Assembly: GCA_965198235.1 (NCBI GenBank) | Contig: OZ240248.1 | Location: 4,320,001 to 4,384,000 of the forward strand | Source of the DNA: Candidatus Poribacteria bacterium | Lineage (GTDB): Bacteria; Poribacteria; WGA-4E; WGA-3G | DNA: 64,000 nucleotides | Reading direction: 5' to 3' | Part shown: one piece after another, positions 6,905-61,889 of the stretch | How positions within the stretch are numbered: position 1 is the stretch's first letter | How the letters are laid out: the number at the start of each line of letters is the position of its first letter | The notes under the pieces: model-generated | Seen by the model: the letters and a program-made list of their open reading frames with translations, nothing else | What the model was told of the DNA's origin: nothing | Database searches by the model: none | Made by a program: the position numbers and the translations under genes

Positions 6905-7678
6905 ATGAAAATTTACATTCTAACCGACTTAGAAGGGGTTGCGATGGTATCCCGCTTCAGTCAAACCCGTGAAGAAGGTCCCCAGAAACAGACAGCCATG
7001 AAATTATTGACGCAGGAGTTAAATGCTGCTGTTGATGGCATTCTTGATGTGGATGCAGACGCAGAAATTGTGGTCTGGGATGGACACGGGACTGGCGGCA
7101 TTGATGTGCTCGAATTTCATCCGAAGGCGAAACTCATAGCGCGGGGTCCTATCCGTCCGCCCTACTATCTTGACACGACCTATGACGCGCTCTTTTTCTT
7201 AGGACAACACGCCATGGCAGGCACGCCAAACGCTCCGTTGAGTCATACGTATTCTTCTTTGTCAATTGAATACTACAAACTCAACGGGAAAATGATCGGA
7301 GAATTCGGATGCCGTGCAGCACTCGCAGGCACTTTCAATGTCCCAACGGTTTTCATCTCTGGCGACGATAAAGCGGTTGCAGAAGCGAAGCAACTTATAC
7401 CCAACATTTATGGCGTTGAAACCAAACAGGGGCTCGGACAGGAACTCGCGTTGCATCTATCACCGCAGCGGTCGCGAGAACTGATTCGAGAGGCTGCCGC
7501 GGATGCTTGCCGACATATCACTGAGATTGCCCCATTGAAAATCGATCCACCTTATACGTTTGAAGTCCGGGTGCTTGAAGGTAAATCAATTGATCGGTAC
7601 CTGCAACAGGGCGCGGTGAAGATTGATGATCGCACCGTCAGTTGGCACAGCGATGACCTTTACGCCCTGTCTATTTAG
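6905..7678 (+). CDS. M55 family metallopeptidase (DppA D-aminopeptidase-like)
   Basis: TDLEG, DGHG, GQHAMAG, HTYS, GEFG and SGDD motifs. Confidence 0.88.
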   Translation: MKIYILTDLEGVAMVSRFSQTREEGPQKQTAMKLLTQELNAAVDGILDVDADAEIVVWDGHGTGGIDVLEFHPKAKLIARGPIRPPYYLDTTYDALFFLGQHAMAGTPNAPLSHTYSSLSIEYYKLNGKMIGEFGCRAALAGTFNVPTVFISGDDKAVAEAKQLIPNIYGVETKQGLGQELALHLSPQRSRELIREAAADACRHITEIAPLKIDPPYTFEVRVLEGKSIDRYLQQGAVKIDDRTVSWHSDDLYALSI

Positions 7679-7679
7679 C

Positions 7680-10600
7680 ATGTCAAACCAGAACACATCT
7701 CTCCAGTCCGGCATCCGAGATAACCTTCGCCGTGGAACAGTTTATGAATTCTTAGCACAAGAAATCAAAAACGGCTCCCTTCTCTCCGTTGTATCCGCAT
7801 ACTTCACCATCAACGCCTTTGAGGCACTGCAAAAACCGCTGAACCAAATAGACAATCTCCGCTTTCTGTTTGGCGACCCGGATTTTATCAAAAGTCTCGA
7901 CCCGAGTAATACCGAGAAAAAAGCGTTTGGAATTACGGACACAGGCTTGGAACTCAGTAAGCAACTCCAACAGAAACCGATCGCGAAAGCCTGTGCCGAA
8001 TGGATAAAAGAGAAGGTCGAAATCCGATCAACACGAGAATCAAACCTCCTCCACGGGAAAATGTATCACATCGCCAATAATGGTGTTGAAAAGGCGATCA
8101 TGGGCAGCTCGAACTTCACCATGCGCGGTTTAGGGTTAACGCAGGAAAGCAACAACATTGAACTGAATCTGGAGGTGGATAGCGACCGCGACCGCAGCGA
8201 CCTGAAAGCATGGTTTGATGAAATCTGGAATGACAACAAACTCGTTGAAGATGTCAAGGGGAAAGTCCTCGCTACATTAGGACAGATAGGCAAAGATCAC
8301 GCGCCAGAACTCATCTATTACAAAACCCTCTACGAACTTTTTCGTGATGAGATCGAAACACGGAAAACTAACGATCAAACCCTTGAAGACACGCATCTGT
8401 ATGACACCAAAATCTGGGAAACGTTGTATGAGTTTCAGAAAGAGGGCGTGAAGAGTGTGATTGCCCGTCTATTACGGCACAACGGCTGTATCTTAGCAGA
8501 CAGCGTCGGTTTAGGAAAAACCTACACGGCACTCGCGGTTATCAAATTCTTTGAATTGCGAAACGAACGTGTGCTCGTCCTATGTCCTAAAAAACTGCAT
8601 GACAACTGGGCACTCTATCCCGCCTATAACTCGCAAGACACGAATCCATTCCTTGATGACAAGTTCGGCTACACGCTGCTGTCGCATACCGACCTCTCCC
8701 GTTACACGGGTGAATCCGGTGGCGTTAATTTGGAAAATTTCAATTGGCGTAATTTCGACATGATAGTGATTGACGAATCACACAATTTCCGCAACGACAC
8801 CAAACCTACCCGTGATGACGACGGCAACTTCGTCCGACACAGTCGCTACACACGGCTTTTGGAGGAGGTTATCAAGAAAGGCACGAAAACAAAGGTGCTG
8901 ATGCTTTCGGCAACACCGGTAAACACCTCGCTCACCGACCTTCGTAATCAGATTTACCTGATGACCGAAAAACGTGAGGATGCCTTCAGGAAAAGTTTGG
9001 GGATCGGTAATATCCGTTCAATGCTACAGCAAGCACAAAAGGCATTCAAGACATGGGAGGAGGACGGAGAAGAGAACGGGAAAAAAGACAAAGCGAAGTT
9101 GCTGGAAACACTCGGTGCCGATTTCTTCCAATTGCTCGGGGGTGTCTCTATCGCCCGTTCCCGACGGCATATTAAAACCTTCTATGCCGACGAAATAGAC
9201 CGGATCGGAGACTTCCCGACACCGCAGAAACCAGAAAATTTCCACCCACCGACCGACTTGACAGGTGAACTCTCCTACAAAGCCTTAGCAGATCAGATAG
9301 GCGAGTTTACACTCTCCATCTATCAACCTTCCAGTTATGTCATCAGCGAGGCAGCGAAACAGCGGTTAGCAGACGAAAAACAGAAATTTCGTTTCAACCA
9401 AGCAGATCGTGAGCGATTCCTTATCGGCATGATGCAGACCAACTTTCTTAAGCGTTTGGAAAGTTCCGCACACTCCCTCTCGGAAACGCTTGAGCGCACC
9501 GTCGGCAAAATTGACGCTATGCTGAAGAAGATTCACAAATATGAACAAAATCCACGTATACAAGACGCACAAGCCGACGTTCTACCTGATGGCGATGAAG
9601 ACGATGAGGAATTTTTGATTAACCGAGCGCGGAATCCTTATCACCTCAGTGAGTTGGATTGCACCCGCTGGAAAAAAGATCTCATCAAAGACAAACAGAT
9701 CTTAACCGCCGCGTGGGACAAAATCAAATCCATCACACCCGCCCGGGATGGCAAACTCAAAGCAATCAAGGCGCGTATTAGAGACAAGGTACTAAACTCA
9801 ACGACTGACAAGGACGGAAAAACCAACCGCAAATTGTTAGTCTTCACGACCTTCAAAGATACGGCGGTCTATCTCTATGAAAACCTGTCAGATATTGCGG
9901 CTGAATTAAACCTGAACATGGCGATGGTTTCAGGAAGCAGCACATACACCACCTGCGGACGAAACAACTTCAACGCTATCCTAACCAATTTTGCTCCGCG
10001 TGCGCGAGGACGTAGCGATAGCACAAGCGAGGACGTTGATCTCCTCATCGTCACGGACTGTATCTCAGAAGGGCAAAATCTTCAGGACTGCGATACGGTA
10101 CTGAACTATGACATCCACTGGAACCCTGTCCGTATTATCCAACGCTTTGGGAGAATTGATCGAATCGGCAGTCGTAATACTACGGTGAAGATGATCAACT
10201 ACTGGCCCACCGAAGACATGGAGGTTTACCTCCGTTTACAAAGCCGCGTGGAATCCCGTATGGCACTCGCCGACGCAGCCGCAAGCGGTGATGACGACCC
10301 GCTGAATGAATTCACTTATGAACAGGCACAGATGGAACTCAATTTCCGTGATGAGCAATTGAAGCAGCTCCGCGAAGATGTCTTAGACCTCGACGACCTC
10401 TCCGACGGAATCGTCATGAGCGATTTTACGTTTGATTACTTCTTTGCCCAATTGCTAAAGTATCTCGAAAGAAACAGGGCGGAATTAGAAGCCACACCGA
10501 AGGGGGCGTACGCCGTCACTACCAACGAAAACAGTCCGACAGAAACCGGTGTCATCTTTTTCCTCCAGCAACTTAATGCCACGACGGATATTGAGAAAAA

Positions 10601-10973
10601 GACACCGAGTCCCATCTACCCTTATTATACTGTCTACATCCGTAAAAACGGCGACATCCGTTACGGATGTGCAAACGCCAAACAGGTGTTAGATCTGTTT
10701 GAAGCGTCGGTTGTCGGAAGAAGCGATGAATTGCCAGAGTTGTGTCTCCAATTCGACCAAGAGACACAAAACGGCAAGAATATGGAAGCGTATAATAAAC
10801 TTCTGAACGCCGTCATTGCTCACATCACACGATCACATCAAAAAACGCAAACCCAAAACTTGGGCAGAGGTGGCACGCGCGGTTTCAAACTACCAGTCGC
10901 ATCCGAAGCCCCCAGGGACTCCAGCGATTTTGAACTGGTAACGTGGCTAATCATCACAACACGACCATCTTGA
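7680..10973 (+). CDS. PLD-nuclease domain fused to an SNF2-family helicase (R-M associated)
   Basis: N-terminal LHGKMY...GSSNFT (single HKD-type motif). Helicase motifs LADSVGLGKT, IDESHNFRN, SATP, SEGQNLQ and QRFGRIDRIGS. Start ATG 7680. Confidence 0.88.
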   Translation: MSNQNTSLQSGIRDNLRRGTVYEFLAQEIKNGSLLSVVSAYFTINAFEALQKPLNQIDNLRFLFGDPDFIKSLDPSNTEKKAFGITDTGLELSKQLQQKPIAKACAEWIKEKVEIRSTRESNLLHGKMYHIANNGVEKAIMGSSNFTMRGLGLTQESNNIELNLEVDSDRDRSDLKAWFDEIWNDNKLVEDVKGKVLATLGQIGKDHAPELIYYKTLYELFRDEIETRKTNDQTLEDTHLYDTKIWETLYEFQKEGVKSVIARLLRHNGCILADSVGLGKTYTALAVIKFFELRNERVLVLCPKKLHDNWALYPAYNSQDTNPFLDDKFGYTLLSHTDLSRYTGESGGVNLENFNWRNFDMIVIDESHNFRNDTKPTRDDDGNFVRHSRYTRLLEEVIKKGTKTKVLMLSATPVNTSLTDLRNQIYLMTEKREDAFRKSLGIGNIRSMLQQAQKAFKTWEEDGEENGKKDKAKLLETLGADFFQLLGGVSIARSRRHIKTFYADEIDRIGDFPTPQKPENFHPPTDLTGELSYKALADQIGEFTLSIYQPSSYVISEAAKQRLADEKQKFRFNQADRERFLIGMMQTNFLKRLESSAHSLSETLERTVGKIDAMLKKIHKYEQNPRIQDAQADVLPDGDEDDEEFLINRARNPYHLSELDCTRWKKDLIKDKQILTAAWDKIKSITPARDGKLKAIKARIRDKVLNSTTDKDGKTNRKLLVFTTFKDTAVYLYENLSDIAAELNLNMAMVSGSSTYTTCGRNNFNAILTNFAPRARGRSDSTSEDVDLLIVTDCISEGQNLQDCDTVLNYDIHWNPVRIIQRFGRIDRIGSRNTTVKMINYWPTEDMEVYLRLQSRVESRMALADAAASGDDDPLNEFTYEQAQMELNFRDEQLKQLREDVLDLDDLSDGIVMSDFTFDYFFAQLLKYLERNRAELEATPKGAYAVTTNENSPTETGVIFFLQQLNATTDIEKKTPSPIYPYYTVYIRKNGDIRYGCANAKQVLDLFEASVVGRSDELPELCLQFDQETQNGKNMEAYNKLLNAVIAHITRSHQKTQTQNLGRGGTRGFKLPVASEAPRDSSDFELVTWLIITTRPS

Positions 10974-11079
10974 CTTTTTATAATAGTACATGGTATTATA
11001 TTTCAAACATTGATGTAGATGCTGATTGGTTCAACCTCGCGTAGCCACTTATCGCTTATAGGTAGACGAAAAATCGTCA

Positions 11080-11418
11080 ATGCGTAACGCACGTCCGCGG
11101 ACAATAAATTTTTACCAGATTCCAAACGGTCCTGAACCTTTTACAAGATGGTTACTTTCAATTCGGGATACAAGCATACGACGGATTCAAGCGCGAATTA
11201 TTGTTATTGAAACCGGCAATCTTGGCGACCATAGATCTGTAGGTGATGGGGTTTGGGAACTACGACTTGACTTCGGACCAGGCTATCGTATCTATTATGG
11301 TGAAGTAGATAACACAGTTGTTCTGCTCCTCTGTGGAGGCGACAAGTCTTCGCAGAGACGGGATATAGAACGCGCAAAAAACTATTGGAAAGAATACAAA
11401 GAGAGGCACAAACAATGA
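11080..11418 (+). CDS. RelE/HigB-like toxin (addiction module killer family)
   Basis: GNLGDHRSVGDGVWELRLDFGPGYRIYY...LLLCGGDKSSQRRDI signature. Confidence 0.9.
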   Translation: MRNARPRTINFYQIPNGPEPFTRWLLSIRDTSIRRIQARIIVIETGNLGDHRSVGDGVWELRLDFGPGYRIYYGEVDNTVVLLLCGGDKSSQRRDIERAKNYWKEYKERHKQ

Positions 11419-11804
11419 AAATCTACGGAACATGGCATGCTTTCCTCATTGAACAACTCAAGGAAAAAGAAGATGTGGGAGGGTTTCTCGATGCAGTCAT
11501 CGAAGAATATCAGATCCACCGGAATCTCGCCACAGTTCAATTGGCTCTTCAGTATGTCGTTGAAGCACAAGGCGGAATTTCCGAACTCGCCCCAAAAATA
11601 GACATTGAACCACAAGTACTCTCGGAAATGTTAGATAGCACTAAAACACCAAAGACTGACACGCTTAGAACCGTACTCATTGCTTTGGGATGCCATCCTT
11701 CAATTAAGTCTTTAGAAACTGTAAATACCCCTACTGCAGCCGCAACTGATGGATCTGCAGTTGCACCCATAGAGGCTGTAGACCCTAACCGTAACCTTGA
11801 TTAA
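11415..11804 (+). CDS. HTH antitoxin (addiction module antidote family)
   Basis: ATGA overlap with the toxin stop; ALQYVVEAQGGISELA...PKTDTLRTVLIALG helix-turn-helix pattern. Confidence 0.8.
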   Translation: MKIYGTWHAFLIEQLKEKEDVGGFLDAVIEEYQIHRNLATVQLALQYVVEAQGGISELAPKIDIEPQVLSEMLDSTKTPKTDTLRTVLIALGCHPSIKSLETVNTPTAAATDGSAVAPIEAVDPNRNLD

Positions 11805-11942
11805 TACCACGTTTCAATAAAGGAAAGAGGGATACACGCCTGAATAGAACTGCATAAGTCGTTAGAACCTATTCACAAATAGTTGAAAATAATAGGGGCT
11901 GGCACACACTGCCACCCCATTTTTTATAGGAATTACAGCATA

Positions 11943-14900
11943 ATGAACAAGGAAGCGATCAAATCTACCTTAGCAGCCATATCCGCTGGTGATCTTTTGG
12001 AAAAATCAAAAGACCTCTTGGCAACTTTAGGTTACTGTAGTGAACGGACGCTTGAACTTTCAGGAACCGTGGACGATTTCATTCAGGAATTTGAGGCACT
12101 GAATCCAAACACCAAGACTGAACAGGAATTCCGCAACAACGCCGAATCCGTGAAACTCGTGTTCCAGTTTACCAGCGACGAAATCGCTGATGACCTGCAG
12201 CAGACGCTTTTTGAATCCGCTTCTTTCGACAAGGGAAATACAGACAGTTTTCTTTTCTGTGCGGTTGAATTAAAGGATAACAATTATTCACGGACCAAAT
12301 ACGCCGAGTTTACACGAGAAATCAATAAGCGATTGGGCGCGCCGACTGTGGTGTTATTCCGCGTTGTAAATCGTCTGATCGTCGCTTTTGTCGGTCGCCG
12401 TCCACACAAGGCTGACACAGATCGCGATGTCCTGGAGCAGGTCACACTGATTAAAGACATCCGCCTAAACAATCCGCACCGTGCACATCTGGACATTCTG
12501 TCCGAACTCTCACTTGAAGAATGTGCTACGTGGATGGATGCCAACAGAAAACCAAAAAACTTCGACGGTTTGCTGGCAGCGTGGCTCGCCAAACTGGACA
12601 CCGAAGAACTCAATAAGCAATTCTATCGGAAACTGTTCGCATGGTATGAATGGGCAGTAGAGGAAGCGAAGTTTCCAACAGATGAAAACCGCGTTTTGGA
12701 ACCGGCGGAACATGTCATCCGCCTCATCACACGCCTGCTCTTTATCTGGTTCATCAAGGAAAAAGGACTGGTCGCCGAGGAGTTGTTTAACAAATCACAA
12801 ATCCAAGGACTGTTGAAAGAGGATGCCTTCGATAACGGTGATTCCTACTATCGTGTTGTGTTACAAAACCTCTTTTTCGCCACGCTCAACACCGAGATAG
12901 GCAATCGAAAGTTTAGCACCGTTGGCTACTCCACTCATCGTGATTTCTCACGGTACCGTTATAAAAATCAGATGCGCGACCCTGACAAACTATTGGGCAT
13001 GTTTGTTACAATACCTTTCATCAACGGTGGTTTGTTCGATTGTCTGGATAGCTGGGAAGCAACGGGTGAAGATAGTTACCGTATAGATTGCTTTTCCGAC
13101 AAACAGTACAAGAAACTGTCCATCCCGAACCGTCTCTTTTTTGACAACGTCCGAGGGCTGCTTCCCTTACTTGAGCATTACAAATTCACCGTTGAGGAAA
13201 ACACACCGATTGAGCAGGAGGTGGCACTTGACCCAGAATTGCTCGGCAGAGCATTTGAAAATCTACTCGCTGCCTATAACCCGGAAACCGGTGCAACGGT
13301 GCGTAAACAGACCGGATCCTACTACACCCCGCGTGCTATTGTCGATTACATGGTGGAAGAAGCGTTAGTCGCTACGTTATCCCAAAAATGCGACCCAACC
13401 GATGGCGACACCAAACTGTGGGATGAACGTTTACATTATCTCCTCGACTATGCCCAAACTTTCGATGATGCCAACGAATGGTTTGATGATCTTGAGACAG
13501 ATGGAATTGTCCGAGCAATTTCCGAACTCAAGATACTCGATCCGGCAGTCGGCTCTGGAGCGTTCCCAATGGGAATGCTGCACAAACTGACGCTTGCACT
13601 GCGGAGACTTGACCCAGACAACAGCCGATGGGAAAAGTTACAGAAGGAACGCGCGATACAACGAGCAGAAATAGCGTTTGATACACAGCACGACCCAACG
13701 CGGCGTGAAGAACTCATCGAAATCGATGAAACCTTTAAACGTTACCGAGATTCAGACTTCGGACGGAAGTTGTATCTAATCCAAAACAGCATCTTCGGCG
13801 TTGACATCCAACCCGTGGCGTGCCAGATTGCTAAACTCCGATTTTTCATATCTCTCGCAATCGAGCAGGAACCGGAGCAAGACGCAGAGAACTTCGGTAT
13901 CAAACCGTTGCCGAATTTGGAGACGCGCTTTATCGCGGCAAACACACTGATAGGGCTCACAGCACAACGGATGCTGACAAGTAACACCGCGCGAGATTTG
14001 GAACAGCAACTGAGCGACAACCGCGAGCGGCATTTCCACGCCACCGCTCGTCAGCGTAAACGTGAATGCAAGCGAAAAGACGAGAAATTGCGCCGGGAAT
14101 TGGCAGCGGAATTAAAAAGCATGGGTATGCCCGACAATGATGCTGAAAGGATTGCTCGTTGGGATCCTTATGACCAAAACGCCACAGCCAATTGGTTTGA
14201 CTCGGAGTGGATGTTTGGAATCATTGACGGGTTCGATGTCGTAATTGGCAATCCCCCATATATTAATATTGAGAATCTTCCTATTGCAACCAAGGATTAT
14301 CTGTTCAATAACTATCGATCCTGTCAAGGAAGAACTGATATTTACATTGCTTTCCTTGAAAAATCTATTTCTATCCTTAGTGTCAAGGGAATTATGGGTT
14401 TCATTCTTCCTTACGCTTTCGCTATGCAAAAATACGGCGAGAAAATGCGTCAGATCCTGATAGAAAATCATACTATTCGGGAAATCGTGGATGCCAGTAG
14501 TTACAGAATTTTTGAGAACGCTGTTGTGTATAACATCATCTTGACAGTTGGTAATCATAAAGTGCAAGACCATACGAAAGTCCGCTTACATCACAGCAAT
14601 GCAGATTTTGACGAGCGTGGAGGCGAGGAATTCTTGATTGATCAACACACCTTTGCAAAACTCAAAGATTCTCGCTTTGAAACCAACACTCATGTATTTG
14701 ACAGTATCGAGATAAAAGAAAAGATATGGCGGAGCTCCGTTCGTTTCGACCAGATTTGCCTTGTTGCCTACGGTGCTCGACTCAATCACCGATCAAAAAA
14801 GTTGGGAAAAACGCACTATATCAGCCGGTCTCCAGTTTCAGTCAGCAAGAGGTTTTGCGAAGGAAAGAGCATTGAACGTTACTCGTTTGCTCAGGTGGGT

Positions 14901-15437
14901 TGGTTGAACTATAGACCAGATGAACACTACAACCCGATGTTTCCAGAGTTGTTTGAAAACAAGAAACTAATGTTCATCAATGTTGTGAAAGATCGGTTGC
15001 GCTTCGCTTATGACGATGAAGGTTTTTACAACAGTCACACAGTTGTAAATTGCGTCCGATTGGATTTGCTTTTAGGCGTATCCCATGTCTCCGCACGTCG
15101 CGCGGTCCGAAGTGTTGATATCAATCTCGCCAAGAAGTATGATTACAAATTTCTTCTGGGAGTTCTAAATTCTAACTTTATGAACTGGTACTTCCGTAAC
15201 TTCTTAAGCGAGGGGCTACACTTTTATCCGAATGATGCCAAAGCGTTGCCTATCCCTGATGTAGCACCTGAACAACAAACTCCTATTATTGAACTTGTGG
15301 ATCAAATCCTTGATACCAAACGGGATAACTCGGATGCAGACACTTCTGTTTTTGAAAATAAGATTGACAAACTGGTATACGTCTTATACGGCTTAACCGA
15401 CGATGAGATTGCGATTGTGGAGGATGCGGTGGAGTAA
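11943..15437 (+). CDS. Type IIG (Eco57I-like) restriction-modification enzyme: adenine MTase with TaqI-like TRD
   Basis: PFINGGLF, GSYYTP, ILDPAVGSGAF (motif I), GNPPY (motif IV) and C-terminal IDKLVYVLYGLT. Possible D...ELK nuclease motif in the N-terminus. Confidence 0.9.
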   Translation: MNKEAIKSTLAAISAGDLLEKSKDLLATLGYCSERTLELSGTVDDFIQEFEALNPNTKTEQEFRNNAESVKLVFQFTSDEIADDLQQTLFESASFDKGNTDSFLFCAVELKDNNYSRTKYAEFTREINKRLGAPTVVLFRVVNRLIVAFVGRRPHKADTDRDVLEQVTLIKDIRLNNPHRAHLDILSELSLEECATWMDANRKPKNFDGLLAAWLAKLDTEELNKQFYRKLFAWYEWAVEEAKFPTDENRVLEPAEHVIRLITRLLFIWFIKEKGLVAEELFNKSQIQGLLKEDAFDNGDSYYRVVLQNLFFATLNTEIGNRKFSTVGYSTHRDFSRYRYKNQMRDPDKLLGMFVTIPFINGGLFDCLDSWEATGEDSYRIDCFSDKQYKKLSIPNRLFFDNVRGLLPLLEHYKFTVEENTPIEQEVALDPELLGRAFENLLAAYNPETGATVRKQTGSYYTPRAIVDYMVEEALVATLSQKCDPTDGDTKLWDERLHYLLDYAQTFDDANEWFDDLETDGIVRAISELKILDPAVGSGAFPMGMLHKLTLALRRLDPDNSRWEKLQKERAIQRAEIAFDTQHDPTRREELIEIDETFKRYRDSDFGRKLYLIQNSIFGVDIQPVACQIAKLRFFISLAIEQEPEQDAENFGIKPLPNLETRFIAANTLIGLTAQRMLTSNTARDLEQQLSDNRERHFHATARQRKRECKRKDEKLRRELAAELKSMGMPDNDAERIARWDPYDQNATANWFDSEWMFGIIDGFDVVIGNPPYINIENLPIATKDYLFNNYRSCQGRTDIYIAFLEKSISILSVKGIMGFILPYAFAMQKYGEKMRQILIENHTIREIVDASSYRIFENAVVYNIILTVGNHKVQDHTKVRLHHSNADFDERGGEEFLIDQHTFAKLKDSRFETNTHVFDSIEIKEKIWRSSVRFDQICLVAYGARLNHRSKKLGKTHYISRSPVSVSKRFCEGKSIERYSFAQVGWLNYRPDEHYNPMFPELFENKKLMFINVVKDRLRFAYDDEGFYNSHTVVNCVRLDLLLGVSHVSARRAVRSVDINLAKKYDYKFLLGVLNSNFMNWYFRNFLSEGLHFYPNDAKALPIPDVAPEQQTPIIELVDQILDTKRDNSDADTSVFENKIDKLVYVLYGLTDDEIAIVEDAVE

Positions 15438-15438
15438 A

Positions 15439-15565
15439 TTGTCTGAATCGCGGATTACACGGATTGCGCAGATTTCACGGACTTTTGGGATTTGCATCAT
15501 CCGTGTCAGTAGGATAAGTTGTCTGAATCACGGATTACACGGATTACACAGATTTCACGGATTTC
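15439..15565 (+). repeat. Two ~46-bp units (TTGTCTGAATC plus four RCGGATTAC-like 9-mers) spaced 80 bp apart
   Basis: Units at 15439-15485 and 15519-15565 separated by 33 bp of unique sequence. Confidence 0.9.
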
Positions 15566-15627
15566 AACCTGTGCTACATATACCCCTTGTGATTCAGATA
15601 GTCATAAGAATGAGGGATACTGCAAAA

Positions 15628-16035
15628 ATGAACAATAATCTAAAACATAAGGATGTAACTCAGAAGATTATCGGAGCTGCCTTTGAAGTACATAAGTTTT
15701 TAGGGAGCGGTTTCCAAGAGGTAATTTACCAACGAGCATTGGCATTTGAAATGAGGAAAGCAGGACTGGAGTTTGCCCGGGAAATTGAGCAGGATATTTT
15801 CTATAAGGATTTTCCAGAACCTATCGGCACACGTAGAGCAGATTTTGTGGTCGCAGGAAATGTGTTGGTGGAATTAAAGGCTATTACGGCATTAAAAGAT
15901 GTGCACGAGGCACAACTTTTAAATTATTTGAAAGCGTATCGGTTAGAAATCGGTTTATTACTCAATTTCGGGTCAAAGAGTTTGGAAATCAAAAGACTGA
16001 TTCTTACACAACCCACTCGCAGATTCAAGAGCTAA
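15628..16035 (+). CDS. GxxExxY family protein (PD-(D/E)XK-like)
   Basis: IIGAAFEVHKFLGSGFQEVIYQRAL, RADFVV...VELKA and QLLNYLKA..LEIGLLLNFG. Start at ATG 15628; the upstream ORF extension is repeat-derived. Confidence 0.93.
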   Translation: MNNNLKHKDVTQKIIGAAFEVHKFLGSGFQEVIYQRALAFEMRKAGLEFAREIEQDIFYKDFPEPIGTRRADFVVAGNVLVELKAITALKDVHEAQLLNYLKAYRLEIGLLLNFGSKSLEIKRLILTQPTRRFKS

Positions 16036-16059
16036 CGGAAGCAATAAAACAGCCTCTTC

Positions 16060-16373
16060 AATCCGCGTCATCTGCGTAATCCGTGATAATCCGCGATTCT
16101 GACAAATACACTCCCAATGATATAACAGAGCAAAACATGACACATAAGCCAGAAAGATAACCCCAATTAGAGAAACCCAAAAATCCGCGTCATCCGTGAA
16201 AATTCGAGATTCAGACAGACGCGCAGAGCAGTTCCGTGACAGCGACTCTTTCAATCCGCGTCATCCGCGTCATCCGCGTCATCCGCGATTCAGACAATAG
16301 AGAGAACCCGCCTCCAAACTTCAAGATTTCTCAATCTGCATCTGCGTCATCCGTGACAATCCGCGATTCTGAC
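16060..16373 (-). repeat. Four units of the same repeat in inverted orientation with unique spacers
   Basis: Units 16060-16105, 16182-16217, 16253-16297 and 16333-16373, each ending GATTCWGAC. Spacers of 76, 35 and 35 bp. Confidence 0.9.
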
Positions 16374-16458
16374 TTGTTCGCAAAATTGAGATTGCTAAAC
16401 GAGTGCATACATGGTATGATTTAACATTAGAGGGAATCCGCATCGTGGAGAACAGAAT

Positions 16459-16653
16459 TTGAACGCGCAAAAAACCGAACTGAACAGGATTTTGGAGATA
16501 ATCGGTAGAATAGCGGAAACAACTGCCGATGGCGACTACATTTACCGCGGTGAACCTCAACACTATGAGGAAGTATCCTCAAGTCTGTGGCGTGAATGCA
16601 GAAAAGAAGGAGACATAAAACATGCAAACACGGACAGATCAGGCATCTTATGA
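16459..16653 (+). pseudogene. N-terminal fragment of an FRG-domain protein
   Basis: YIYRGEPQHYEEVSSSLWR matches the FRG start motif. The ORF ends after 64 aa, out of frame with the overlapping TPR ORF. Confidence 0.6.
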
Positions 16654-17428
16654 AAACGCCATCCAGCACTATAACAAAGCAATTGAACGGAGACCCACCT
16701 TTGCCCAAGCCTATAACTATCGAGGCATCGCTTATGGCAATATAGGCGAAATTGACCGAGCCATTGAAGACTTTAATACAGCGATAAGACGCAAGGAAAA
16801 CTATGCCGAAGCCTACAGTAACCGTGGTGGTGCCTATCGTCTCAAAGGTGACTATGACCGCGCCATCAAAGACTGTAACACCGCGATAAGACTGGACCCC
16901 AATTTAGCAGAGGCATACAACATCCGTGGGGTGGCTTATCGACTCAAAGGCGAGTTTGACCTCGCCGTTGAAGACTATAACACCGCGATAGAACTTAATC
17001 CAAGTTTTGCTTATGCCTATTACAATCGAGGCATCGCCTACCAAGAAGAAAGACACGAGTTTGATCGCGCCATCAACGACTATAACAAGGCAATAGAGCT
17101 GAGACCAGACCTTGTCCATCCCTACAACAACCGCGGTAACGCTTACTCCCAAAAAGGCAAATATGAATTTGCCATCAAAGACTATGATAAGGCGATACAA
17201 CTCAAACCCGATTTACCAGAAGCACATTACAATCGCGGTATGGCGTTTTTACACTTACAAGAATGGAAAAAAGCCAAATCAAACCTGACTGATGCAAGAG
17301 ACATGCAAGAAAATATCATCATTGAGAACTTTGGTAAAGACTACGGAAGCATTGCAGACTTTGAGCACAAACATAATGTTAAACTACCGGAAGACATTGC
17401 CGCAATGCTAACTCCCCTACAGGTATAG
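16622..17428 (+). CDS. Tetratricopeptide repeat protein (probable C-terminal part of an FRG-TPR gene)
   Basis: About six 34-aa repeats of AYxNRGxAY...AIxDYNxAIxLxP. Confidence 0.88.
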   Translation: MQTRTDQASYENAIQHYNKAIERRPTFAQAYNYRGIAYGNIGEIDRAIEDFNTAIRRKENYAEAYSNRGGAYRLKGDYDRAIKDCNTAIRLDPNLAEAYNIRGVAYRLKGEFDLAVEDYNTAIELNPSFAYAYYNRGIAYQEERHEFDRAINDYNKAIELRPDLVHPYNNRGNAYSQKGKYEFAIKDYDKAIQLKPDLPEAHYNRGMAFLHLQEWKKAKSNLTDARDMQENIIIENFGKDYGSIADFEHKHNVKLPEDIAAMLTPLQV

Positions 17429-17463
17429 CACAGGTATAGCAGCGAAACAAAAACTGTCTCCTT

Positions 17464-17519
17464 AACGGATTACCTGATGTTACAGATTATCAATCCGCGT
17501 CATCTGTGGCATCCATGAT
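17464..17519. repeat. Degenerate head-to-head copy of the 9-mer repeat
   Basis: AACGGATTACCTGATGTTACAGATT followed by AATCCGCGTCATCTGTGGCATCC. Confidence 0.6.
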
Positions 17520-61475: not shown

Positions 61476-61889
61476 TTAGACACCTTTTTGGTTCTCAATA
61501 TACTGCTTTAGAACTTCAAGGGTAACATTTCCTGCACTCGCTACAAACTTTGAACGCGTCCACAGACAAGGTAAACGACGCTTAAGTATTGGAAACTCAT
61601 TGCGTAGTATTTTTGCTGTGTAACCTTTGATTTTTCCAATTACACTTGTAACTGAAATGTCGGGGGGAATACTCGCAAGCAAATGAATGTGATCAGGCAT
61701 ACTTTCAACTTCTCTGACAACATAGTGATATGCCTCTTGTTGTTCAAGAATTAATGCTTTGAGTCTTGCTTGGATTTCTGGTGATAGAACAGAACGACGA
61801 TACTTCGTGCACCAAATCATGTGATACTCACAAGCATATAGACTTGTTTCTGTGGAAATATATTTGTGGTCATTGTTAGTAATATTCAT
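61476..61889 (-). CDS. tnpA: IS200-type HUH (Y1) transposase
   Basis: YHMIWCTKYRR, PDHIHLL, LW and KQYIENQ motifs. ATG 61889 preferred because TTG 61925 is part of the -35 box. Confidence 0.95.
   Translation of the reverse strand: MNITNNDHKYISTETSLYACEYHMIWCTKYRRSVLSPEIQARLKALILEQQEAYHYVVREVESMPDHIHLLASIPPDISVTSVIGKIKGYTAKILRNEFPILKRRLPCLWTRSKFVASAGNVTLEVLKQYIENQKGV

Follow-up and report, generated by a model that had tools for sequence, protein, structure and literature searches.

The present study examined a repeat-flanked gene in a stretch of 64,000 nucleotides (nt) of DNA from a Candidatus Poribacteria bacterium, hereafter called the window. The gene encodes a GxxExxY/PDDEXK_3 protein, and it is enclosed by arrays of short repeat units. 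We consider it somewhat probable that this module represents a copy of a compact cassette that moves horizontally and comprises a gene for a PD-(D/E)XK nuclease of approximately 130 amino acids (aa) and its own cis-elements, with the nuclease acting on its own repeats. The cis-element is a head (GTCTGAAYC) at the outer boundary followed by two to five tandem 9-mers of the form NNN-GAT-TNN. Units without the gene are dispersed in the same genomes, and sites that are empty in some genomes are occupied in others. Insertions lie exactly at gene junctions with their boundaries at the head, and the neighbouring genes remain readable. The gene and its units are inherited and transferred together across phyla, and the type of unit fits the clade of the protein. 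Positions are those of the window unless they are prefixed by a genome identifier; G000 denotes the source genome, which is 5.17 megabases (Mb) in size and 96% complete.

The initial annotation had described two units on the + strand upstream of the gene and four inverted units on the - strand downstream, with periods of 80, 113, 79, and 78 base pairs (bp), and all of these were present at the positions given for them. The module is composed as follows.

15439..15485, + strand: upstream unit 1, type A, with head TTGTCTGAATC and four 9-mers (GCGGATTAC, ACGGATTGC, GCAGATTTC, and ACGGACTTT)
15519..15565, + strand: upstream unit 2, type A, 90% alike to unit 1 and 80 bp downstream of it
15566..15627, + strand: leader of 62 nt, from unit 2 to the start codon
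15628..16035, + strand: GxxExxY/PDDEXK_3 gene, 135 aa, protein clade I, with PF13366 and TIGR04256 matches
16058..16105, - strand: downstream unit 1, type A, inverted
16179..16218, - strand: downstream unit 2, shorter, with the degenerate head CTGTCTGAATC
16250..16297, - strand: downstream unit 3, the best-preserved copy, with GCGGATGAC three times
16333..16373, - strand: downstream unit 4, adjoining the following gene

Each unit is built of a head (GTCTGAATC or TTGTCTGAATC) and tandem 9-mers, which at this locus number two to four per unit (RCGGATKAC), the last usually being GCGGATTTT. The heads face outward, and the upstream and downstream arms are 80-95% complementary. The ends of the - units (16105, 16218, 16297, and 16373) are spaced by 113, 79, and 78 bp, and the head of the fourth has 2 mismatches. 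The stop codon of the preceding type IIG gene lies 1 nt before the first unit. The double 9-mer RCGGATKACRCGGATKAC (up to 3 mismatches) had 14 matches in the window versus 0.36 expected (0 of 100 shuffles), and all 14 fell within 15450-17516. Ten matches to the head (up to 1 mismatch) were found versus 3.27 expected, a number reached by 1 of 100 shuffles, and five of them are inside the module. No sigma-70-like promoter was called in the leader (15566..15627); the sole promoter-like site in 15300-16700 was at 16392-16420.

The protein matched PF13366 (PDDEXK_3; 1.8e-37, 128.7 bits against a cut-off of 22) and TIGR04256 (GxxExxY; 3.1e-39, 133.9 bits against a cut-off of 35). It carries the motifs G28-F-Q-E31-V-I-Y34 and D72...E82-L-K84. 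In an alignment of 46 sequences (A1), Y34 and K84 were invariant and E31, D72, and E82 were conserved at 90% or more, and in an alignment of 12 sequences (A2), all motif residues were invariant. An AlphaFold2 (AF2) model was obtained with a predicted local distance difference test (pLDDT) score of 93.8 and a predicted template modelling (pTM) score of 0.87. Its best structural matches were all PD-(D/E)XK proteins, namely the BpuSI nuclease domain (Z 7.5, root-mean-square deviation 2.9, 95 aligned), AF1548 (Z 7.4), TT1808 (Z 7.1), and Cas4 SSO0001 (Z 7.0); these middling Z values (7.0-7.5) point to the fold class of the modelled protein, not to its function. The family profiles, the motif residues, and the fold model all agree with the earlier description of the protein as PD-(D/E)XK-like. 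Foldseek with the AF2 model returned nothing at E up to 0.001, and a search by sequence for solved relatives gave none at E up to 1. The sole PADLOC match was Cas4b (E 0.0023), and Pfam detected no transposase-family domain in the enclosed open reading frame (ORF). The ORF at 15403-16035 (210 aa) is longer than the gene because it extends the gene backwards through the upstream units.

The family is very large, and a search with a threshold of E 0.001 yielded 16,272 cluster representatives. Among the best 150 of these, approximately 28 have two GxxExxY domains in tandem, with lengths of 213-389 aa and two matched stretches each. A 2012 survey of the superfamily (PMC3424549) lists the function of PDDEXK_3 as 'Unknown' and notes 'multiple transfers'. 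A literature search, with subscription journals and supplements outside its scope, did not find a partnership of the GxxExxY gene with flanking repeats. One paper mentions a GxxExxY domain only as a neighbour of an RT gene, and among the papers listed for Poribacteria, the titles and abstracts that deal with repeats concern repeat proteins, not DNA repeats.

The units are not confined to the window. A 19-mer of the unit (up to 2 mismatches) had 61 matches in G000 versus 0 for the control. A looser definition gave 177 matches (control 8), 121 of which contained at least two GGAT/AGAT motifs (control 1). These 121 units formed 88 clusters, 67 of them single units, and the six-unit cluster of the window was the largest; distances between units in clusters ranged from 24 to 377 bp. 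Strict counts in G000 identified three types of unit with a common head, comprising 34 of type A (RCG-GAT-KAC), 37 of type B (CAG-GAT-TTA), and 13 of type C (TGT-GAT-TTT), with 0 for each control. Eight of the 13 type C units are within 22 kilobases (kb), at 1355586-1377726. The units are mostly intergenic (9 of 72 were inside crude ORFs). G000 has only two GxxExxY genes, and both have units on both sides, at a genome share of 1.3% within approximately 300 bp of a unit. The second gene (G000:C1:2715604-2716011) is located between hsdM and hsdS of a type I restriction-modification (R-M) operon, with a + unit upstream and - units downstream.

The hsdM/hsdS junction provides a comparison of empty and filled sites, which had been proposed as a check, and empty sites were found. 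In G060 and G048, the stop of hsdM overlaps the start of hsdS (ATGAGAC followed by GTTATCC; …TTATGAGAC followed by GTTATCCTGAATATAAAG), and these genomes are unoccupied where G000 has a cassette of 727 bp between ATGAG and GTTATCC, ending in …GATTCAGAC followed by GTTATCC. In G000, the start codon of hsdS is an ATG within the tail of the - unit, and the 9-mers are read in frame (MDDNKIREIRLIRENPRF-RRYPEYK…). G063 has one 9-mer fewer at hsdS, and the frame is kept. In G016 (L178, G016:C1:3870000-3872300) and G012 (L042, G012:C22), what comes after the - unit is a near-copy of the final ~22 nt of hsdM, with a native ATGA(G/A)(A/G)C start behind it. This copy of hsdM may have arisen as a long target duplication, or it may be a captured fragment that preserves the start signals of hsdS. 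At L171 (G012:C79), hsdM is followed by a + unit and leader as at the second G000 cassette and then by a different, hydrophobic ORF (MKKLNIRPF...), a possible replacement of the cargo within the same frame of units.

The 3' end of the type IIG gene shows a similar series. In G007, no unit is present and the gene runs straight into the next one, and in G065, there is one + unit, the head of which supplies the TGA stop. In G034, the head of a + unit also gives the TGA stop (…IAIVEGV followed by the stop), and it is followed by 226 bp and then by - units, with no gene. This arrangement (L139, G034:C21, 3128-3530), in which the core of 226 bp contains hairpin repeats and is followed by two or three - units, looks like a non-autonomous form of the cassette.

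We then compared 31 genomes of the order, G000 included, with E up to 1e-10 as the criterion for the gene. Type A units occurred in 26 of the 31, including all 18 other genomes of the same genus (controls 0); the genomes without them were G019 and all four of one family. The GxxExxY gene was found in 14 genomes, all of which have units. Among the 25 GxxExxY loci of the order, 19 have type A or B units within 250 bp, and inverted type C units flank five of the other six (L033, L040, L044, L046, and L049), such that 24 of 25 loci have units. The last locus without units, L052, is a gene fragment. In 5 of the 19 loci, all nearby units have a single orientation. The number of type A units showed no clear dependence on the gene in the 19 genomes of the genus, with overlapping counts of 7-34 with the gene and 2-24 without it. 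Type B units were most numerous in G016, which has a clade II gene (134), and numbered 91 in G014, which has no clade II gene.

The type of repeat tracks the clade of the protein in a tree of 102 proteins. Clade I is associated with RCG-GAT-KAC 9-mers (CG/CA-GAT), clade II (L031, L032, and L039) with CAG-GAT-TTA, and clade III (L033, L040, L044, L046, and L049) with TGT-GAT-TTT. Pairs of NNGAT at a spacing of 9 bp numbered 159 in the flanks versus 3 for a TAG control, and none of the 102 loci had both A and B arrays. Cassettes of different types coexist in the same genome (A and B in G020, A and C in G028, and B and C in G029). Since these contrasts exist inside single genomes, host background fails to explain the match between clade and type. 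Only 4 alignment columns (positions 19, 65, 71, and 74) and a 2-aa indel beside position 65 separate the three clades and are at most candidates for specificity residues, with clades II and III being represented by only 3 and 5 sequences, the N-termini of which are truncated by the chosen start codons.

The association extends to other phyla. A set of 80 loci was collected with a query from the 12-sequence alignment, the proteins being 56-84% identical, and flanks of 1.5 kb were analysed. As judged by record title, the loci are from Poribacteria, Bacteroidota, Chlorobiota, Latescibacteria, Cyanobacteria, Melainabacteria, Spirochaetes, Fibrobacteres, Chloroflexi, Nitrospirae, Caldiserica, Calditrichia, Verrucomicrobia, and Peribacteria of the Candidate Phyla Radiation (CPR), and cultured strains in the set include Limnoraphis robusta and Reichenbachiella versicolor. 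Since the proteins are 56-84% identical across phyla, the GxxExxY gene is horizontally mobile. Two copies of C[AG]GA[TA] at a distance of exactly 9 bp were found within 300 bp of the gene at 36 of 80 loci versus 1 of 80 for the reversed motif, and 120 of the 154 motif-pair matches were within that distance (the control had 7 matches in all). Exact 5-mer triples near the gene had a period of 9 at 15 of 80 loci, and periods of 6, 7, 8, 10, 11, and 12 at 0-3.

The resemblance includes the head at several of these loci. The Spirochaete locus L073 has an identical head and 9-mers, with two + units and one - unit upstream and one + unit and three - units downstream. The same head and 9-mers are present at the CPR Peribacteraceae locus L132, with one + unit upstream and one - unit downstream, in a genome of approximately 1 Mb that has only 5 unit matches. 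In cyanobacterial and melainabacterial loci, the 9-mers are unchanged and the head is the variant CTGAACAC. At L077 (an unclassified metagenome-assembled genome, 1-410), the GxxExxY gene is immediately preceded by a 72-bp block that is repeated six times head to tail. Since L077 repeats the unit together with an identical 'spacer', arrays can grow by tandem duplication. Gene-less loci with units or inverted doublets occur in five genomes of other phyla (G073-G077), and inverted doublets were noted at L087, L073, and G074 C5. The odd tails of several database proteins (TDDTDCTDN, SAKSAKSADSD, and CLNPDLEDL...NPQNPGSDK) are translated units, as judged by their 3-residue periodicity.

These results are consistent with the following mechanism. 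Several subunits of the nuclease would bind the array of 9-mers, as proteins do on iterons or on subterminal transposase sites, and the nuclease would cut at or beside the head. Cutting may then mobilise the DNA bounded by units, or copy it through repair. The cassette that carries the gene would be the autonomous form, and gene-less units and doublets would be non-autonomous derivatives or remnants. Three features may limit damage when the element lands between tightly packed genes: the period of 9 bp (three codons), the TGA that the head contains, and a reverse frame that stays open. More tentatively, the cassette may represent an unrecognised class of mobile element, in which a nuclease of approximately 130 aa reads 9-bp iterons (NNN-GAT-TNN) with a clade-matched triplet as a simple, evolvable recognition code. 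The element would cross phyla, seed gene-less copies, and land between overlapping genes without silencing them, helped by its three-codon period, the stop codon of the head, and an open reverse frame that provides a start codon. We regard this broader proposal as a real possibility that falls short of being probable.

However, a number of observations weigh against a mobile cassette driven by its own nuclease. Twelve of the 17 gene-less genomes in the order keep type A units, the other five having neither gene nor units. Type B units are present in 22 of the 31 genomes versus clade II genes in 3, and G000 itself holds 37 type B and 13 type C units and only clade I genes. At the place of downstream unit 4, a - unit is present upstream of FRG-like/TPR genes in all 8 genus genomes checked that have no GxxExxY gene there (L143, L148, L149, L152, L153, L155, L156, and L157), and this position-conserved unit looks stably inherited. 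In the strict motif-pair test, 44 of the 80 cross-phylum loci had no pair. The orientation of units around the gene followed no rule, with 31 + and 16 - arrays upstream and 19 + and 22 - arrays downstream. The hsdM/hsdS and type IIG 3' junctions revealed neither a consistent target-site duplication nor a defined cut site. No PD-(D/E)XK protein of 130 aa is known to be a sole transposase. Moreover, the covariation of unit type and protein clade could arise from the co-inheritance of one block of DNA, without recognition by the protein.

Some of these observations would be expected if the units were host elements, such as sites for a host protein or insulators at gene ends, and the GxxExxY gene were a homing-type parasite that cuts gene-less arrays and is copied in by repair without spreading the units. 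This would explain why units outlast the gene, because 12 of 17 gene-less relatives keep type A units and types B and C occur in G000 without cognate genes. The constancy of the unit sequence across three families of the order and the conserved position of the unit upstream of the FRG-like gene in the 8 genomes also speak for it, and the variable direction of units around the gene would be expected if the gene had inserted into arrays that already existed. However, these units have followed the gene into distant phyla, a CPR genome of 1 Mb among them, as a host-specific element would not. The type of unit follows the clade of the protein within one genome, and no candidate host binding protein was found, CsrA not being detected in G000. 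We therefore regard host elements with a homing-type parasite as rather unlikely. A module acting at the RNA level, similar to an intervening sequence, is improbable. Here the inverted units would pair in the operon transcript, and the stem would be cut, for example by RNase III, which would free the GxxExxY mRNA and separate the flanking messages. The fold of 15430-16385 does pair the upstream with the downstream units (-271.9 kcal/mol versus -235.4 +/- 8.7 for shuffles, z -4.2), but any inverted repeat would fold in this manner. Cassettes lie inside operons, such as hsdM/hsdS, with no promoter-like site between the units and the start codon. Among assembled contigs of metatranscriptome libraries, those of run X5 match 15879-16172 and 16231-17000 exactly; such contigs show neither strand nor transcript ends and may derive from carried-over DNA, and their joints, which have short sides (23-40 nt) in repeat sequence, were left out of account. 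The module resembles the ORF-bearing intervening sequences of 23S rRNA genes in that inverted sequences able to pair in the transcript enclose a small ORF. However, it is outside an rRNA gene and its inverted layout is not conserved among related loci: units have a single orientation at 5 of 19 related loci, and the simple +/- layout was found at only 1 of 17 two-sided cross-phylum loci. Pairing in a transcript also leaves unexplained the gene-less copies, the match between clade and motif, and the 67 of 88 clusters that are solitary.

The initial annotation had also suggested that regular spacers of approximately 34 bp yield small guide-like RNAs, as in CRISPR arrays. Three of the four spacers in the window are ~31-35 bp in length, and the spacers are unique there, such that repeats alternate with unique spacers at this locus only; their regular length was not upheld in the rest of the genome, with 24-377 bp between units. 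The length of units and the number of 9-mers vary, clusters have at most 6 units and are mostly solitary, and the 'spacers' of L077 are identical parts of a 72-bp tandem repeat. The spacer region had no match in 50,697 phage records, plasmids being outside the search. Rfam gave no family at the gathering score in 20 unit-bearing loci (60 kb in total). Nothing Cas-like was found among the Pfam-scanned neighbours (R-M, helicase/PLD, Gp49-like, and TPR; a genome-wide cas search was not run), and Cas4b was matched by the nuclease itself at no better than E 0.0023. A guide-RNA array is thus scarcely credible. Coincidence, in which a small, often-transferred gene happened to land in repeat-rich intergenic DNA, is very improbable. 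Intergenic repeats of several kinds do cluster in G000, for instance at 606-607 kb, where units lie beside a Y1 transposase gene and hairpins. However, both GxxExxY genes are flanked on both sides although only 1.3% of the genome is near a unit, the cross-phylum comparison gave 36 of 80 versus 1 of 80, the motif is specific to the protein clade, and only 1 of 6 Y1_Tnp genes is near units.

The mobile cassette shares its logic most closely with repetitive extragenic palindromic (REP) sequences, their doublets (REPINs), and REP-associated tyrosine transposases (RAYTs). According to two reports (10.1101/2022.05.22.493013, PMC3337134), a RAYT gene is flanked by members of a repeat family, tens to hundreds of gene-less copies of which are scattered through the genome, inverted doublets occur, and the type of repeat is specific to the gene lineage. 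Similarly, the cassette gene is flanked by genome-dispersed repeats (2 of 2 genes, ~121 units), doublets occur, and there is one type per lineage. However, the enzyme belongs to the PD-(D/E)XK superfamily and is not a Y1 HUH (IS200-like) transposase; the unit is a head with direct 9-mers rather than a palindromic REP doublet, with 67 of 88 clusters being single. Unlike RAYTs, which are described as mostly vertically inherited, the GxxExxY gene is horizontally spread, and the units persist widely without it. The cassette therefore follows the REPIN-RAYT logic and differs in four counts: enzyme family, repeat structure, copy behaviour, and inheritance. A selfish unit of this kind had been one of the options offered for the module; the tie of the gene to dispersed repeats (2/2, 24/25, and 36/80 vs 1/80) and the tracking of clade by type support its logic, whereas membership of the RAYT family does not hold.

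Transposons such as Tn7 and Mu have subterminal, multi-copy binding sites at their ends, and miniature inverted-repeat transposable element (MITE) derivatives are known for transposons of this kind. The cassette is similar in that its boundary is outward and its tandem putative sites are inside, it has gene-carrying and gene-less forms, and its insertions are polymorphic. It differs in that it carries no DDE, serine, or tyrosine recombinase, has no consistent terminal inverted pair and no clear target-site duplication, and often consists of solitary units. Free-standing homing endonuclease genes, including those of PD-(D/E)XK types, carry no repeat arrays and have no dispersed gene-less copies; what the cassette has in common with them is a small nuclease gene that acts as a selfish insertion at precise sites and hardly harms its neighbours.

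The partnership with flanking repeats gives the orphan PDDEXK_3/GxxExxY family a testable role. If the mobile cassette is real, it adds another enzyme class to the few proteins known to maintain dispersed bacterial repeats, and it provides small nucleases whose DNA specificity appears to shift readably between clades. The units also explain recurrent annotation artefacts, in which ORFs run into units and neighbouring genes gain unit-encoded N-termini, and they are relevant to the tolerance of compact symbiont and CPR genomes for mobile DNA within operons. The present case adds the order-wide dispersed units in Poribacteria, the occurrence of the head and 9-mers in Spirochaete and CPR loci, the three clade-matched types of 9-mer on one head, the exact empty site with in-frame repair, and the persistence of units without the gene.

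The module is located in a stretch that resembles a defence island, and a type I R-M operon harbours the second cassette. The features adjoining the module in the window are as follows.

11883..15437, + strand: type IIG restriction-modification gene (Pfam Eco57I 1.3e-35, N6_Mtase 2e-13, and TaqI_C 1.9e-9)
17455..17516, no strand assigned: degenerate tail-to-tail doublet of unit remnants, heads outward, downstream of the TPR gene

The Eco57I, N6_Mtase, and TaqI_C domains agree with the earlier naming of the upstream gene as type IIG R-M. The doublet at 17455-17516 had been taken for a head-to-head orphan copy; it is a degenerate tail-to-tail pair with the heads outward. The gene downstream of the module had been called FRG-TPR, of which the TPR part stands. 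The 'FRG' label is unconfirmed because the small ORF (64 aa) gave no Pfam match at E up to 0.1. This FRG-like ORF (16459-16653) and the TPR ORF (268 aa, 16622-17428) overlap in different frames, and the two segments are 78-88% conserved and adjacent in many genomes of the genus; they may represent two genes or a single frameshifted one. The stretch 7623-11804, which precedes the type IIG gene, holds a PLD-nuclease and SNF2/ResIII helicase protein of 1116 aa and, after it, a small Gp49-like (toxin-like) ORF overlapping an ORF of 139 aa.

Two other functions for the units were considered and rejected. A role as promoter or terminator was not supported, as units between co-directional genes showed no sense bias (13 sense versus 23 antisense; the ORFs are crude and the comparison is weak). 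The GGA-rich 9-mers resemble CsrA sites. A CsrA sponge or binding site was rejected since G000, at 96% completeness, had no PF02599 match, and the controls were detected in 3 genomes.

G000 also contains six Y1_Tnp genes, only one of which has units within 1.5 kb. One Y1_Tnp gene, at 606918-607262 (G000:C1:606680-607400), lies between hairpin repeats that differ in kind from the units (GCACTCCAGCGGAGTGC, then TAT..ATAGAAAA). Similar hairpins were noted beside many units and also within the pair of units in G034 that encloses no gene. The hairpins and Y1_Tnp genes may constitute a separate REP/RAYT-type system in the same genome. Another Y1_Tnp match is present in the window itself, at approximately 61488-61841 on the - strand.

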